From: Eledone cirrhosa
Lineage: Eukaryota
Direction of reading: 5' to 3'
Assembly (NCBI GenBank): GCA_964016885.1
Contig: OZ024756.1
Span: 35,526,001 to 35,590,000, forward strand
Length of the DNA stretch: 64,000 nucleotides
Shown: positions 19,959 through 55,034 of the stretch, piece by piece
Numbering within the stretch: position 1 is the stretch's first letter
How the letters are laid out: each line of letters begins with the position of its first letter
The notes under the pieces: model-generated
What the model was told of the DNA's origin: nothing
The model's database searches: none
What the model saw: the letters and a program-made list of their open reading frames with translations, nothing else
Made by a program: the position numbers and the translations under genes

Positions 19959-19960
<2 letters not shown>
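18935..19960 (-). mobile_element. 5'-truncated RTE LINE (RT C-terminus, ~380-bp 3' UTR and (GAT)n tail)
   Basis: ORF 19320-19960 plus a UTR ending in the ccatgcaagcgtgg hairpin and (gat)n. Confidence 0.92.
19320..19960 (-). pseudogene. RTE-clade reverse transcriptase C-terminal region (open frame, truncated at a TA tract)
   Basis: FRYLG...ARVRTGWKKFREL...LHGSETW...RRLRWYGH...GRPRKTW...DRDLWR. Confidence 0.92.
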
Positions 19961-19996
<36 letters not shown>

Positions 19997-20000
<4 letters not shown>

Positions 20001-20202
20001 AACCAGTAAGACCCCGACGGCTGAGCTCAAGCCGTTTCGACGGCTAATTCTGAACTGAATTAGCCGTCCAAAATTAGCCGTCGAAACGGCTTGAGCTCAG
20101 CCGTCGGGGTCTTACTGGTTCCTATTACCCACTCTACTACCCCAAGTATTGAGTACTTTGGTGCGTTATGGTCCACCTGGTTCCTTACCATATTTCCTTC
20201 GT

Positions 20203-20203
<1 letters not shown>
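19997..20203 (+). mobile_element. Fold-back mini-element, family H (3' half of hammerhead plus tail)
   Basis: Arms 19997-20050/20072-20124; GAAA cggct tgagctc agccg TC ggggtc; (TA)n on both sides. Confidence 0.75.
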
Positions 20204-20240
<37 letters not shown>

Positions 20241-21015: not shown

Positions 21016-21084
21016 TAAGTTATTCCGGGTTGAATCGGAGGTAACCACAGTAAGTAAGGTACTCAATACATAGCAGAGTATAAA
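21016..21084 (-). mobile_element. 3' tail fragment of family B within (TA)n
   Basis: Matches 4344-4412. Confidence 0.75.
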
Positions 21085-23085: not shown

Positions 23086-23649
23086 TGCTGTTGTAGTTTA
23101 GTTGATGGCTACAACTTCTTAAGATATGATGGATATACCATAAATATCAACATTACAACAGAGAAAGAAAAACGGTTTCTTTGAGTAAGCACCAACTGAT
23201 GGTTCCTTTGATCTTCATGAGAACGTGGATACATAGAGAGTCTTGGTGACTACCTGGAGATATAAGTTCACCAAACTACTGGAGACATATTACATATCCT
23301 GGTCTTTGTGCGCACATAGAGAGGAAAGATAGCCTAACACCTGAGTACATATTCCAATTTACCATGGAGTCTTTGTAAGTACTTGCACTGATAATGTTGG
23401 ATAATCGTTTAATGTTGGCGCCATGATAGCTTCCAAAGATGGTTTCAGGAACTTTATTCACATCAAAGATGTTTTTGCTGGTGATGTAAGTTTTAGTTAA
23501 ATCAATTGATCCCTCTCTCTCTCTCTCTACCCTTTGAATATATATATATATATATGTATGTATGTATGTATATATATATAAATGTATATAACTAAGAATG
23601 GTTTGCCAAAGAGTAATGGAAGGTAACATGTATATTCCATATAGAAATG

Positions 23650-23699
23650 ACTTCTACAGGACTAGAACTGTTTCATTTGTTTGAAATCATCAGGAAAGT
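23650..23699 (-). ncRNA. Hammerhead ribozyme, family B
   Basis: Reverse complement: actttc CTGATGA tttcaaacaaat GAAA cag ttctagtc ctg TA gaagt. Confidence 0.6.
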
Positions 23700-23780: not shown

Positions 23781-23949
23781 AGGGAAGCAGAAAATTGCTT
23801 TTTGTGATCCAGTTAGGGTTAACTCCACAAGTTTGTAAGAATTCCGCTCAATCTTGGAGTATAAAGTATAAAAGAGAAAACACAGGTAAGCATTAATAGA
23901 AGGATTCTATTTTCTCTTTTATACTTTATACTCCAAGATTGAACGGAAT
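23781..23949 (-). mobile_element. Fold-back mini-element (40-bp arms 23841-23880/23910-23949) within (TA)n
   Basis: Inverted repeat with 1 mismatch; long arm carries the ACTC/GAGT hairpin. Confidence 0.65.
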
Positions 23950-24083: not shown

Positions 24084-24379
24084 AATTCCTTTCAACTAAA
24101 CTGTATCCATTCAAATCTTTCTATATATATATATATATATATAAGCATTCATCATATTTTTGACTAAAGAAATTTTAGCCTGATAGTGGGGGTTTAAAAC
24201 CCTCTAAAAATGGAAAAGAATGAGTATTGATGTTTATATTCATCTTTTTTCATTTCTTAGAGGGTTCTAAACCCCACTATCAGGAAAAATTTCTTTAGTA
24301 AAAAATACGGTGAAAGTTTCTATTTCTACTAAATTTCAAACTTTGCTTGCTATTTCAAAACAAACTTAGTTGTTATGTT

Positions 24380-24511
24380 ATATGTTGACATACTCTGCGA
24401 GCTAAATAAACTATGTATCAAATTTGAACAAAATTGGATGGAAACTGTAGAAATGCATTACCTGCTCACAGACAAACAGACAGACGTTTTTGTTTTTCTA
24501 TATATAGAGAT
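24380..24511 (-). mobile_element. Possible 5' end of a non-autonomous Helitron/Helentron-like element
   Basis: Reverse complement: atctctatatatag...gtctgtctgtttgtctgt...ccaattttgttcaaatttg; resembles the usual HINE/Lep1-type layout. Confidence 0.4.
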
Positions 24512-25465
24512 AGAAATGATTTCCACATGACTAGAATGGTTTCATTTGTTTGAACTCAATTGACTTTAAGAAGCAGAATCATAAAATGGAGATGACAAAT
24601 GATTACAAGGTTTGGTGACTTAATGTAAGGGCAATGACCTGCCTACCAACATAAAATATAACCTGACCTATTCATGTGTCCTCTCCCACTTTCACTCCTT
24701 AGTAGCTATTCCTCACCCCTTTCATTTTCTTCTCGTCCACAATCACCCCTTAGCTGCTCTCACCATCACTGTATACTTCCGACCCCTACATCACCCAGGA
24801 ATACCTCCACTACCCCTTAAATCCTAACACTCACACTCGATCCAGGTTCATCATGCTACCCAAGACCACCCCTCACCCTGCTCCTAAAATCCCAACACAC
24901 AGGCAATAACATCCCCGCTCCCATTAACTGCTATTATGACAGTACTTCCCAAATGCTAACATCCACATTCTAACCAGTTTAGTAACTCTACTCTGGATTA
25001 CCCTCAACCCCAAACATCTTAACATATCAGTCTTCATTTTTTTTCTGCTTTGCAAAATTTTTTCTTGAATGGGTAATAGGACTTTCATATCTGAAGATTT
25101 CTAGGGTCAACATTGATCAACAAGTCTTTTAAGGACATTTTCTGTGGTAAAGAAGGGTTTACTCTTGCAGGCTCCCTGATAGATATAACACTCCTCATTG
25201 GGCCCTTTATAAGGCAATGTTTTACAGCAGAATGCCCTTCCCAGTGTCAACCCTTTTAGTTGCCTCTAACAACATGCAGTTGATATGGTGTACCTATTCT
25301 AAGCTTGATATACACTAAGATTAACACACCTTAAACAACACTACTTTCCCTGCTAAAGCTGGGGTTAAATTTTGTGGACCCCATGACAGGTTTCATACTC
25401 ATCCATGGCTCCTTTATGAGGCAATGTTTTACAGCTAGATGCCCTTCCTGGCAACAACCCATTTA

Positions 25466-34936: not shown

Positions 34937-35160
34937 GTAAAAGGTAAACAGAAATAACAACACAATCAGTACAGTATATAGAAGGAATATATTAGGTTAA
35001 CGCTTGAAATAGCAGAAAGAGAGTCTTAACGTTTCGGACGCTAGTCCTTCATCAGAAGAAAGAATCAGAAATAAGATAGATTGAAGGGACGGGTGAGGTG
35101 GAATTGGAAAAAATGTCTTTAGATAAAAATAACAGGTCCATTCATGTTGACATCTCTTGG
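34937..35160 (-). mobile_element. Hammerhead-bearing mini-element (ribozyme at 35024-35059)
   Basis: Reverse complement: tctt CTGATGA a ggac tagc gtcc GAAA cg TT aaga; decayed copy at 41431-41649. Confidence 0.8.
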
Positions 35161-41430: not shown

Positions 41431-41649
41431 GTAAAAGGTAAACAGAAATAACACAATCGGTACAGTATATGGAAGGGATATATTAGGTTAACGCTTGATA
41501 TAGTAGGAAGAGGGTCCTAACGTTTTGGACACTAGTCTTTCATCTGAAGAAAGAATGAGAAATAAGATAGATTGATGGGACGGGTGGGTTGGAATTGGAA
41601 AAGATGTCTTTAGATAAAAATAACAGGTCCATTCCCGTTGACATCTCTT
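41431..41649 (-). mobile_element. Decayed copy of the 34937-35160 element
   Basis: Colinear; core mutated to CAGATGA/AAAA. Confidence 0.8.
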
Positions 41650-43396: not shown

Positions 43397-43570
43397 GAAA
43401 AGATTCAGGACCCTGACGGCTGAGCTCCGGCATTTTGATAGCTGTCAGATCTAGCTGTTGAAACGGCCAGAGCTCAGCCGTCAGGGTCCTGAATGTTTCC
43501 ATATTACCCACTCTACTACCCCAAGTTTTGAGTACTTTGGTGGATTATGGTCTAGCTGGTTTTTACCACA
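43397..43570 (+). mobile_element. Diverged family H fold-back element
   Basis: attcaggaccctgacggctgagctc / gagctcagccgtcagggtcctgaat, plus the family H tail. Confidence 0.75.
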
Positions 43571-44027: not shown

Positions 44028-44102
44028 TGTTATACTTTGGGAGGGTCATGTTGCCATTAAATGTGCATGTGTTTTTATTGGCAACATGACCCTCCCAACG
44101 TA

Positions 44103-44107
<5 letters not shown>
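44028..44107. mobile_element. 80-bp miniature inverted-repeat element; the same terminus recurs at 44760 (+) and 55388 (-)
   Basis: 28-bp arms gttatactttgggagggtcatgttgcca / tggcaacatgaccctcccaacgtataac. Confidence 0.6.
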
Positions 44108-44759: not shown

Positions 44760-45082
44760 TGTTATACTTGGGGAGGGTCATATTTGCGTAATATTGCCAG
44801 AATTAATAACAGAACACACTCACTGTTTGGTTGGTTTTCGCTTCTCGCTGTCTTTTATATCTACGATCTAACTTACTCGGTCCTCAATGTTGCCATTGAC
44901 TGACCGACGGTCAAAAATAATACAGATACAATATAGACACAAACACATATATATAGTTTACATAATTTACATAAATCTTTCGTTGCACATCTGCAACATC
45001 GTCAAGTATAACAATATCTGTTTCGACACACGATTTCATATAAAAAACCTCGCTAAACTAATTCATCGCCGCTATATATATA

Positions 45083-45964: not shown

Positions 45965-46364
45965 TAGCAAAGTAGCCTGCCATTGCTGGGCAATTTTCAC
46001 CATAGAATGCCTTTCTTTCAATTTTTTTTTCTTCCATGTCTCCCCTGTGCCTCATCTCTCAGTATTTATTCCCCGTGACCTGTCCCCGTGAATCCTTAAT
46101 CATCCCCATGGTGTTTTCTATGGAAATTTACTCAGTAGAGATATACACACATACACTCTCAAGTATGTAGTATATTCTTAGAGGGTTCTAAACCCCACTA
46201 TCAGGCTAAAATTGCTTTAGTCAAAACATACGGTGAAAGCTTCTGTTTCTAATTTCAAATCGTTCGCTGTTTAAAAAGAATACTTACTTATAAAAATAGT
46301 CGTTTTGGAGGCTTCCAAAACGACTATTTTTCATTGCTTCAAGCAAACTTTAAACACTCTCTTA

Positions 46365-53389: not shown

Positions 53390-53619
53390 ATAATATAAGA
53401 TCAAAAGATGGTTAAAGGAGTTCCATGTATTTTATTATGCGCATTTCAAAATATTATTGCATGATGATGTTTGTTTTTGAAATGCGCATAATAAAATACA
53501 TGGAACTCCTTTAACCATCTTTTGATCTTATATTATGCATACTCCAGTCCTACAAACTGTAGAGTGCTTCTTATCCGATATCTGCATTGCTTTATTGTAC
53601 TACAATAAAACTCACCTCC

Positions 53620-54354: not shown

Positions 54355-54598
54355 TATATTAATAAAAGGAATTCCAACTTTGTCTGATTTACTCGTTTTA
54401 TTTACAATCCTTTAAAATTATAATGATATTATAATGAAATAGTATGGTAGAATATTAATTGTTAAGTGTTAATTGTTCAATTAACACTTAACAGTTAATA
54501 TTCTACCATACTATTTCATTATAATATCATTATAATTTTAAAGGATTGTAAATAAAACGAGTAAATCAGACAAAGTTGGAATTCCTTTTATTAATATA
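54355..54598. repeat. Near-perfect palindrome, 121-bp arms with a 2-nt spacer
   Basis: 54355-54475 versus 54478-54598, one mismatch. Confidence 0.92.
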
Positions 54599-54834: not shown

Positions 54835-54836
<2 letters not shown>

Positions 54837-55030
54837 CGAAGGAAATGTGGTAAGGAACCAGGTGGACCATAACGCACCAAAGTACTCAATACTTGGGGTA
54901 GTAGAGTGGGTAATAGGAACCAGTAAGACCCCGACGGCTGAGCTCAAGCCGTTTCGACGGCTAATTCTAGACGTTGTCTAGAATTAGCCGTCGAAACGGC
55001 TTGAGCTCAGCCGTCGGGGTCTTACTGGTT

Positions 55031-55034
<4 letters not shown>
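54835..55034 (-). mobile_element. Family H fold-back element (perfect 59-bp arms 54914-54972/54976-55034)
   Basis: Near-identical to the reverse complement of 19997-20203. Confidence 0.8.

Follow-up and report, generated by a model that had tools for sequence, protein, structure and literature searches.

Palindromic stump insertions beside (TA)n tracts, most likely derived from a Penelope-like element of the Hydra clade, with a centre that differs from copy to copy

A family of palindromic insertions, designated family H, was investigated in a window of 64,000 nt (the whole stretch of DNA that was analysed). Judged from their sequence, the family H copies are most likely stump insertions, present in high copy number, of a Penelope-like retroelement (PLE) of the Hydra clade that targets (TA)n, and they most likely hold only the last ~115 nt of the element, namely the 3′ half of a hammerhead and a tail. 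The junction at the centre of the palindrome appeared to be made anew at each insertion. Insertion by two cDNAs that start from opposite target strands and are joined head to head is the preferred route, with a probability of about 0.5.

Window and sequence data

The window was AT-rich, and 32,095 of the 64,000 bases were masked, i.e., about half of the window was tandem repeat. A dispersed repeat of ~180 nt presumably resembles an octopus SINE. Two SINE-like copies (60290–60615 and 62654–62978), which were 98% identical and in opposite orientation, lay ~2 kb apart. A C2H2 zinc-finger-like frame under the Pfam curated cut-off was found in a duplicated 455-nt segment on the minus strand (9460–9657 and 10002–10172). 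Among the 150 longest of the 215 non-repeat reading frames of the window, none matched an RT or GIY-YIG family in Pfam. The best 150 of the 289 Rfam matches of the window included only hairpin and low-complexity models.

For the population data, copy 3 of family H was compared with four public sequencing runs. It was matched by 23,255 reads of one run and by 16,839 contigs of another run with the same organism label; two other organism labels contributed 40 and 2 contigs. The summed contig depth given below is not equivalent to copy number. The raw-read run was nearly blind at H1 centres, with 6,800 molecules stopping at 54966, the end of AATT; this pile-up of read ends was probably produced by a library restriction cut at AATT.

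Anatomy of the family H copies

The copies of family H in the window were as follows:

19997–20203, plus strand: copy 1, palindrome with a one-sided tail
43397–about 43570, plus strand: copy 2, older, of a second subfamily (H2), loop at 43444–52; the tail decays past ~43570
54835–55034, minus strand: copy 3, perfect arms of 57 bp, loop at 54973–75, rare variant mirrored at 54969 and 54979
3807–3896, minus strand: copy 4, tail and mini-palindrome at site B, between (TA)n tracts

The three palindromes that the sequence-only reading had placed at 19997, 43397 and 54835 were real, and local inverted repeats were found at each (19999–20122, 43399–43498 and 54916–55032). In the sense direction, the three palindromic copies had the layout (TA)n, inverted arm, centre, 16–17 nt, GAAA, a stem of 5–6 bp, GUC, then 19 nt to TA, the 79-nt tail and (TA)n, with the right-hand (TA)n decayed in copy 2. 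The combination of an inverted 5′-truncated copy and a one-sided tail was present in three of the four copies, and the H copies were single, dispersed and inverted. The parts of copy 1 were as follows:

19960–19998: (TA)n target tract, left flank, at distance 0 from the palindrome
19997–20055, minus strand: inverted arm, a tail-less, 5′-truncated copy with its outer end at an internal TA (site B)
20056–20065 (approximate boundaries), plus strand: junction, ~10 nt templated from the arm (partial duplication)
20066–20082, plus strand: 17 nt before GAAA, the last of them C11.1; sense arm's 5′ boundary and putative 3′ strand of stem II
20083–20111, plus strand: probable 3′ half of a type I hammerhead, with GAAA at 20083–86, stem III at 20086–20104 and the 3′ strand of stem I at 20106–11
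after C20105: putative cleavage site
20123–20125, plus strand: site B, the internal TAT at which the inverted arm ends; probable second RT start
20125–20203, plus strand: 79-nt tail, at one end only; the motif at 20141–58 is common to family K and to Hydra-clade 3′ ends
20202–20239: (TA)n target tract, right flank

The inverted arm of copy 1 showed 0 differences from copy 3 over 54 nt. A (TA)n tract touched site B in all four copies and also the 3′ end in three of them, the 3′ end of copy 2 being decayed. The 3′ end of H (site A) lay ~97 nt beyond the putative cut. The 17 nt preceding GAAA are probably the native strand of stem II. A short direct repeat (20115–20129 and 20177–20189), by which the surroundings of site B recur near the 3′ end, was observed in H and was absent from H2. 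An open frame through the H tail was judged to be a chance frame. A Helentron/HINE reading, based on an 8-nt match between the left end and 20177–84, did not hold in copy 2.

Centres of the palindromes

The centres differed between the copies, as had been noticed from the letters of the window. In copy 1, a 12-mer occurred twice (20057–68 and 20071–82). The centre of copy 3 was a 3-nt loop (54973–75), and that of copy 2 was a 9-nt loop (43444–52) with the axis near 43448, not at 43440 as first read. Copy 4, which the sequence-only reading had not listed, consisted of the tail plus only a mini-palindrome with 6-bp arms at the outer end of the arm, i.e., at the TA that ends the other arms. The earlier claim that the family always inverts at stem II stood for the three palindromic copies, in each of which the tail-bearing arm started 16–17 nt 5′ of GAAA; it did not stand for copy 4, which inverts elsewhere, or for family K (see below), which inverts upstream of CUGAUGA.

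Outside the centre, copies 1 and 3 showed 1 difference over 186 nt, yet their centres were unrelated; the junction therefore appears to be remade at each insertion. The summed contig depth fell from 2–3 million in the arms to ~8,300 at the loop of copy 3 (<0.4%), a drop to which contig ends and subfamily divergence also contribute. The near-identity of copies 1 and 3 beside unlike centres and the low depth at the centre of copy 3 support recurrent formation of the junction, and they disfavour the other suggestion of the sequence-only reading, that the ~200-bp palindrome is itself mobile.

Probable hammerhead half in family H

In copy 1, GAAA, a 6-bp stem and GUC were located at 20083–20105; the stem had 5 bp in copy 2. 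GAAA, stem III and the NUH cleavage triplet were present in all three palindromic copies. Shuffling the 58-nt arm by dinucleotides gave an equal GAAA-stem-UH arrangement in 6 of 5,000 cases; the shuffle ignores the internal 7-mer repeat of the arm. A second occurrence of this 7-mer, which forms stem III, lies directly ahead of GAAA, and in the fold predicted for copies 1 and 3, GAAA falls in the loop of a competing hairpin; the hammerhead 3′ half of H could thus be partly a by-product of the 7-mer repeat. The changes of the H2 subfamily fall in loop III and its closing pair.

None of the three palindromic copies keeps CUGAnGA, which confirmed an earlier statement, and copy 4 is also without the core. 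Neither exact CTGAnGA nor a U3–A8 variant was found within ~100 nt of any of the four copies on either strand, and CTGAnGA occurred in none of 19 loose-end consensuses of 30 letters each (19 listed of 391). The H copies are not complete ribozymes; truncation would explain the missing CUGAnGA half. For H, a targeted Rfam scan with the 3′ hammerhead half of copy 3 yielded no hammerhead match.

The GAAA-stem III pattern was found at 62 plus 1 loci, and none of these 63 loci had CTGAnGA upstream or the tail motif; all of them look like GC-rich microbial chance matches and were rejected as relatives. A 20-nt pattern of the H tail gave 0 loci among the metagenome and viral contigs. A type II hammerhead, with the core downstream of the cut, was also rejected: two positions of the tail motif deviate from the core, and in family K the motif stands beside a full core.

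Family K and other palindromes of the window

Family K and another PLE-like family were represented in the window as follows:

4345–4536, minus strand: family K, copy 1, H-like layout, full type I core with stems I–III, axis just 5′ of CUGAUGA
61060–61122, plus strand: family K, ends at its own site B without tail or inversion, 19 nt from the cut site to (TA)n
21020–21084, minus strand: family K, tail-only copy between (TA)n tracts
23632–23697 and 24510–24558: further family K copies
34937–35158 and 41431–41649, minus strand: another PLE-like family, not inverted; its textbook minimal hammerhead (35055) lies 90 nt from (TA)n

Inverted, tail-only and tail-less forms were all represented among the five window copies of family K. 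A descriptor search found four full hammerhead motifs in the window, one of which lay in the 30-kb unmasked part vs 0 in 100 shuffles of that part. Rfam gave a weak Hammerhead_3 match for K (E = 5.9), and a targeted Rfam scan gave no match for the hammerhead-like motif at 35055. An 11-mer common to H and K lay at nearly equal distances beyond the cut site, ~40 nt in H and ~37 nt in K (91 of 20,000 shuffles). The overall similarity of H and K was weak, an equal score being reached by 62 of 2,000 shuffles from GAAA on and by 468 of 2,000 for the tail alone. The distance from the cut site to (TA)n was 97 nt in H vs 90, 74, 90, and 87 nt in four window elements whose cores were complete or decayed by 1–2 bases. 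Two copies of another family extended more than 100 nt past the hammerhead without inversion. Hammerhead-like motifs at 4068, 38995 (minus strand), and 63760 had stems II of ~10–15 bp and a short UA palindrome as stem III; the motif at 63760 failed the descriptor.

Outside masked DNA, nine local inverted repeats were found, three of which were H. Eight of the nine touched (TA)n within 5 nt at one end, a count that has no shuffle control in a window rich in (TA)n, and in six of these eight a second (TA)n tract lay 46–94 nt past the other end. The TA-flanked palindrome at 53398–53528 had a decayed hammerhead-like core; its tail-bearing arm keeps the core region, and its inverted arm ends a few bases past GAAA. 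Both this palindrome and K, with its axis at stem I, also break in the 5′ half of the ribozyme. Palindromes that abut (TA)n and have no CUGAnGA in the repeat were located at 24148–24314, 44029–44106, 54360–54593, and about 23850–23940, and two of them had related non-inverted copies at 46175–46289 and 45004–45065. These palindromes are possibly hammerhead-free PLEs such as Naiads.

Relationship to Penelope-like elements

According to the available sections of Craig et al. (2021, PMC8557442), PLE insertions have an inverted 5′-truncated copy and a tail at one end, usually of 30–40 nt; the 79-nt tail of H is longer. The same sections describe the Hydra clade as having canonical hammerheads, as inserting nearly always at (TA)n and as including one Octopus family, and one Hydra-clade consensus has a 5′ inverted copy. 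Compared by eye with the consensi given there, the H tail and the Hydra-1_Amil 3′ end agreed at 15 of 18 nt (0.01–0.05 expected by chance over six consensi), and the tail motif GAGYA(C/G)T was present in four of the six Hydra consensi. Counted by eye in the same source, two Hydra consensi end 97 and 88 nt past the cut, and two Hydra consensi without the tail motif end ~35–40 nt past it. The core layout of K is that of Hydra-1_aMil, Penelope-1_NV, and Penelope-1_SK as given in these sections (PMC8557442).

With the Hydra clade (Hydra-1_Amil, Hydra-2_Amil, Hydra-1_Obim, and Penelope-13_HM), H shares the targeting of (TA)n and the tail motif. The type I hammerhead of Hydra members, which lies close to the 3′ end and has a genuine stem III, may have its counterpart in the half core of H, and in some members the distance from the cut to the 3′ end is, as in H, ~90–100 nt. 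Unlike these elements, H consists of ~200-nt stumps with no ORF and no CUGAnGA, and its stem III is longer (5–6 bp, with a loop of 7–9 nt). H is not Hydra-1_Obim, for their 3′ ends differ. Among the window copies, the reading frames and the loose ends listed, no H copy with CUGAnGA or coding sequence was found. The copies are too short for an ORF with the RT and GIY-YIG endonuclease of EN+ PLEs, and the Hydra clade is otherwise recognised by RT phylogeny and protein motifs (DKT, RWK, no CCHH); the tail homology seen by eye is the one link at sequence level between H and this clade. The tail homology with the Hydra clade, the spacing to the 3′ end and the sister family with a full core indirectly support the hammerhead origin of H that had been proposed at the outset.

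According to the part available of Cervera and de la Pena (2014, PMC4209133), PLE hammerheads mostly occur as single motifs in truncated copies, and some form close pairs on opposite strands. PLEs make up 6.83% of the genome in the Octopus vulgaris annotation (PMC13282606, available text). The H motifs were absent from the searched text of that annotation, and H may already be in the Octopus vulgaris repeat library.

Junctions in public reads and contigs

The outer end of the inverted arm was fixed, with (TA)n joined at 54913 in 3,434 reads and 89 contigs, and the loose ends at both ends of H were (TA)n. The raw reads included both the (TA)n-joined and the tail-joined arm, and no single contig covered the whole matched stretch. 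Subfamily H2, to which copy 2 belongs, was represented by a loose-end consensus in 158 contigs and 2,150 reads, and the H2-diagnostic bases were present in the two arms of copy 2 alike. The most variable part between the subfamilies was the arm termini (54917–26). The bases of copy 3 at 54969 and 54979 were mirrored in both arms and were absent from 96–97% of the depth, another base being present in 203,737 of 211,364 and 250,860 of 258,409 depth units, respectively.

Inversions without duplication accounted for 11 of the 15 joints listed (48 in total) and connected the tail side (54879–54925) to the centre end of the inverted arm. Five of six such contig joints with 1–7 known filler letters lay within 6 nt of site B (P ~1e-4 if uniform). 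The non-duplicated joints were rare (depth 19–89 vs millions), their sides were only 21–27 letters long, and they could be later deletions of one arm.

In one contig with another organism label, unrelated DNA was joined ~13 nt 5′ of GAAA. Thirty-three contigs agreed on a loose-end consensus beyond 54976 (agreement 0.53), and this shared loose end may be one inherited centre. A loose end of 1,102 reads at 54985 was rejected as non-inverted upstream sequence and resembled the decayed inverted arm of copy 2. In 24 reads, the 3′ end of one H copy (54836) was connected to site B (54913) of another copy on the opposite strand, a hint at clustered or nested H insertions.

Mechanism of insertion

In the preferred route, a GIY-YIG endonuclease would cut both strands of the (TA)n tract, as suggested by the in vitro data on PAc (Poseidon of Anolis). 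One target strand would prime RT at the RNA's 3′ end (site A), and the other strand would probably prime RT 79 nt upstream, at the internal TAT (site B). The two cDNAs would run toward the 5′ side of the RNA and would usually stop 7–20 nt past GAAA, in the stem II region and before CUGAnGA. The 3′ ends of the cDNAs would then be joined head to head, presumably by error-prone end joining, which would produce a palindrome, a one-sided tail and a new centre each time. If cDNA A stopped near B, an inversion without duplication or a tail-only copy would be formed. The stop point could be a roadblock set by the folded or protein-bound ribozyme, or it could be the true 5′ end of a template that was already truncated.

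The anatomy, the fixed outer end, the differing centres and the non-duplicated forms are the parts of this two-primer model that were observed. The fixed outer end and the rare non-duplicated inversions favour two cDNAs from opposite strands over pure snap-back. Two start sites bounding the tail account for the non-duplicated inversions, for the tail-only copies (H copy 4 and K at 21020) and for the tail-less K copy that ends at B. The available text of Frangieh et al. (2024, PMC11167929) describes cutting and extension of both target strands by PAc, whose tail is bounded by two internal RT start sites, which is like the route proposed for H; the PAc template is the uncut hammerhead RNA, and cleavage is not needed for insertion in vitro. 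Unlike H, PAc belongs to another clade, and its inversion junctions are not described in that text (PMC11167929). Three points speak against two primers: the rare variant of copy 3 mirrored in both arms is simpler under snap-back, a snap-back copy, too, would encounter B as its first TAT, and the non-duplicated joints are rare, short-sided and possibly later deletions.

A possible but rather doubtful alternative keeps the PLE origin and has a single cDNA that folds back near stem II, copies itself outward and switches to the other target strand where it first meets TAT microhomology (site B). It is favoured by copy 3, a perfect hairpin whose loop has 3 nt and whose rare bases at 54969 and 54979 are mirrored, by the H2 bases in both arms of copy 2, and by the long stems II of other hammerhead-like motifs of the window (4068, 38995, and 63760). 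Self-priming was earlier inferred from PLE palindromes in the available part of Arkhipova et al. (2013, PMC3846280). However, snap-back alone does not give the non-duplicated inversions (11 of the 15 joints listed), tail-less copies that terminate at B, or copy 1 with its templated insert, and palindromic heads are also found in families without CUGAnGA in the repeat. Repeated snap-back on stem II had been one suggestion of the sequence-only reading; the recurrent formation of the junction held, but snap-back did not hold as the only route, since other families invert elsewhere or without a hammerhead. Two-primer joining and snap-back may both operate.

It is improbable that the whole palindrome and its tail form a non-autonomous unit, descended from one or a few founding inversions, whose transcript is re-inserted intact. 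The 5′ boundary was nearly fixed in all three palindromic copies, and the 33 contigs with a common loose end beyond 54976 maybe share one inherited centre; but copies 1 and 3, identical at 185 of 186 nt, have unrelated centres, the copy 3 centre has <0.4% of the arm depth, and the subfamily differences are matched in both arms.

A Tc1/mariner-type MITE is defined by conserved terminal inverted repeats at both element ends. In H, the greatest variation between subfamilies is at the arm termini (54917–26), and the element continues for 79 nt past one arm. A hairpin MITE of this type with TA duplication, lying beside an unrelated tail, would require the hammerhead half to be due to chance and copy 4 to be an excision footprint. 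TA bounds the palindrome on both sides, copy 4 reads TA, three bases and TA at the empty site, and stem III overlaps the repeated 7-mer, all of which would fit; the variable termini, the tail attached in register in all three palindromic copies and the same layout with a full core in family K make this reading very improbable. Palindrome tips are unstable and no single contig spans the whole stretch, but it is hardly credible that all copies landed with one centre and that breakage and repair of hairpin tips, or errors of assembly, scrambled it later, for copy 3 persists as a perfect hairpin, the raw reads show both the (TA)n-joined and the tail-joined arm, and the asymmetric joints cluster at B rather than evenly over the arm.

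Within the two-primer route, a more speculative and unlikely extension is that the hammerhead determines the break point: the folded, protein-bound ribozyme would block the RT of the element, and both cDNAs would end in the 5′ half of the ribozyme and be joined at that point. The active H templates would be non-coding RNAs of ~115 nt with their start in stem II. They would parasitise Hydra-clade PLEs as half-hammerheads, would have spread to very high copy number, and would offer a substrate strand for trans cleavage by the CUGAnGA half of the full-length element.

Comparison with other systems

In L1 twin priming, as Ostertag and Kazazian reportedly described it in 2001, the second target strand primes internally and a 5′ inversion results. 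L1 inversions are said to be without duplication, whereas most H copies duplicate a segment and the second site is fixed.

The Penelope insertions of Adineta vaga with an inverted pLTR, in the available part of Arkhipova et al. (2013, PMC3846280), are like H in having a 5′ inverted copy, junction palindromes and a one-sided tail, with self-priming proposed. They differ from H in their 31-bp tail and visible target duplications, and in that part their junctions are not mapped onto a ribozyme. Non-LTR retrozymes, as described in the available part of a preprint (bioRxiv 10.64898/2026.07.22.740005), are like H small non-coding PLE derivatives with type I hammerheads. The retrozymes of this source form head-to-tail tandems with a complete ribozyme in each unit, whereas H is dispersed and inverted and has half a core.

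Significance

The architecture and the self-priming idea are already in print. A literature search, which covered few subscription journals and repeat databases, found no paper mapping inversion axes onto a ribozyme or describing family H. The origin of the tandem and inverted structures of PLEs is named as unsolved in the available sections of Craig et al. (2021, PMC8557442).

Family H is young and very abundant (16,839 contigs in one run); its outer end is fixed, its inner boundary nearly so, and each copy has a new junction. As a natural experiment, it can separate two-primer joining from self-priming, and it can show whether the fold of the ribozyme stops reverse transcription. The reading given here explains a common class of microsatellite-flanked palindromes, to which annotation software may give the label of MITE or miRNA-like hairpin.
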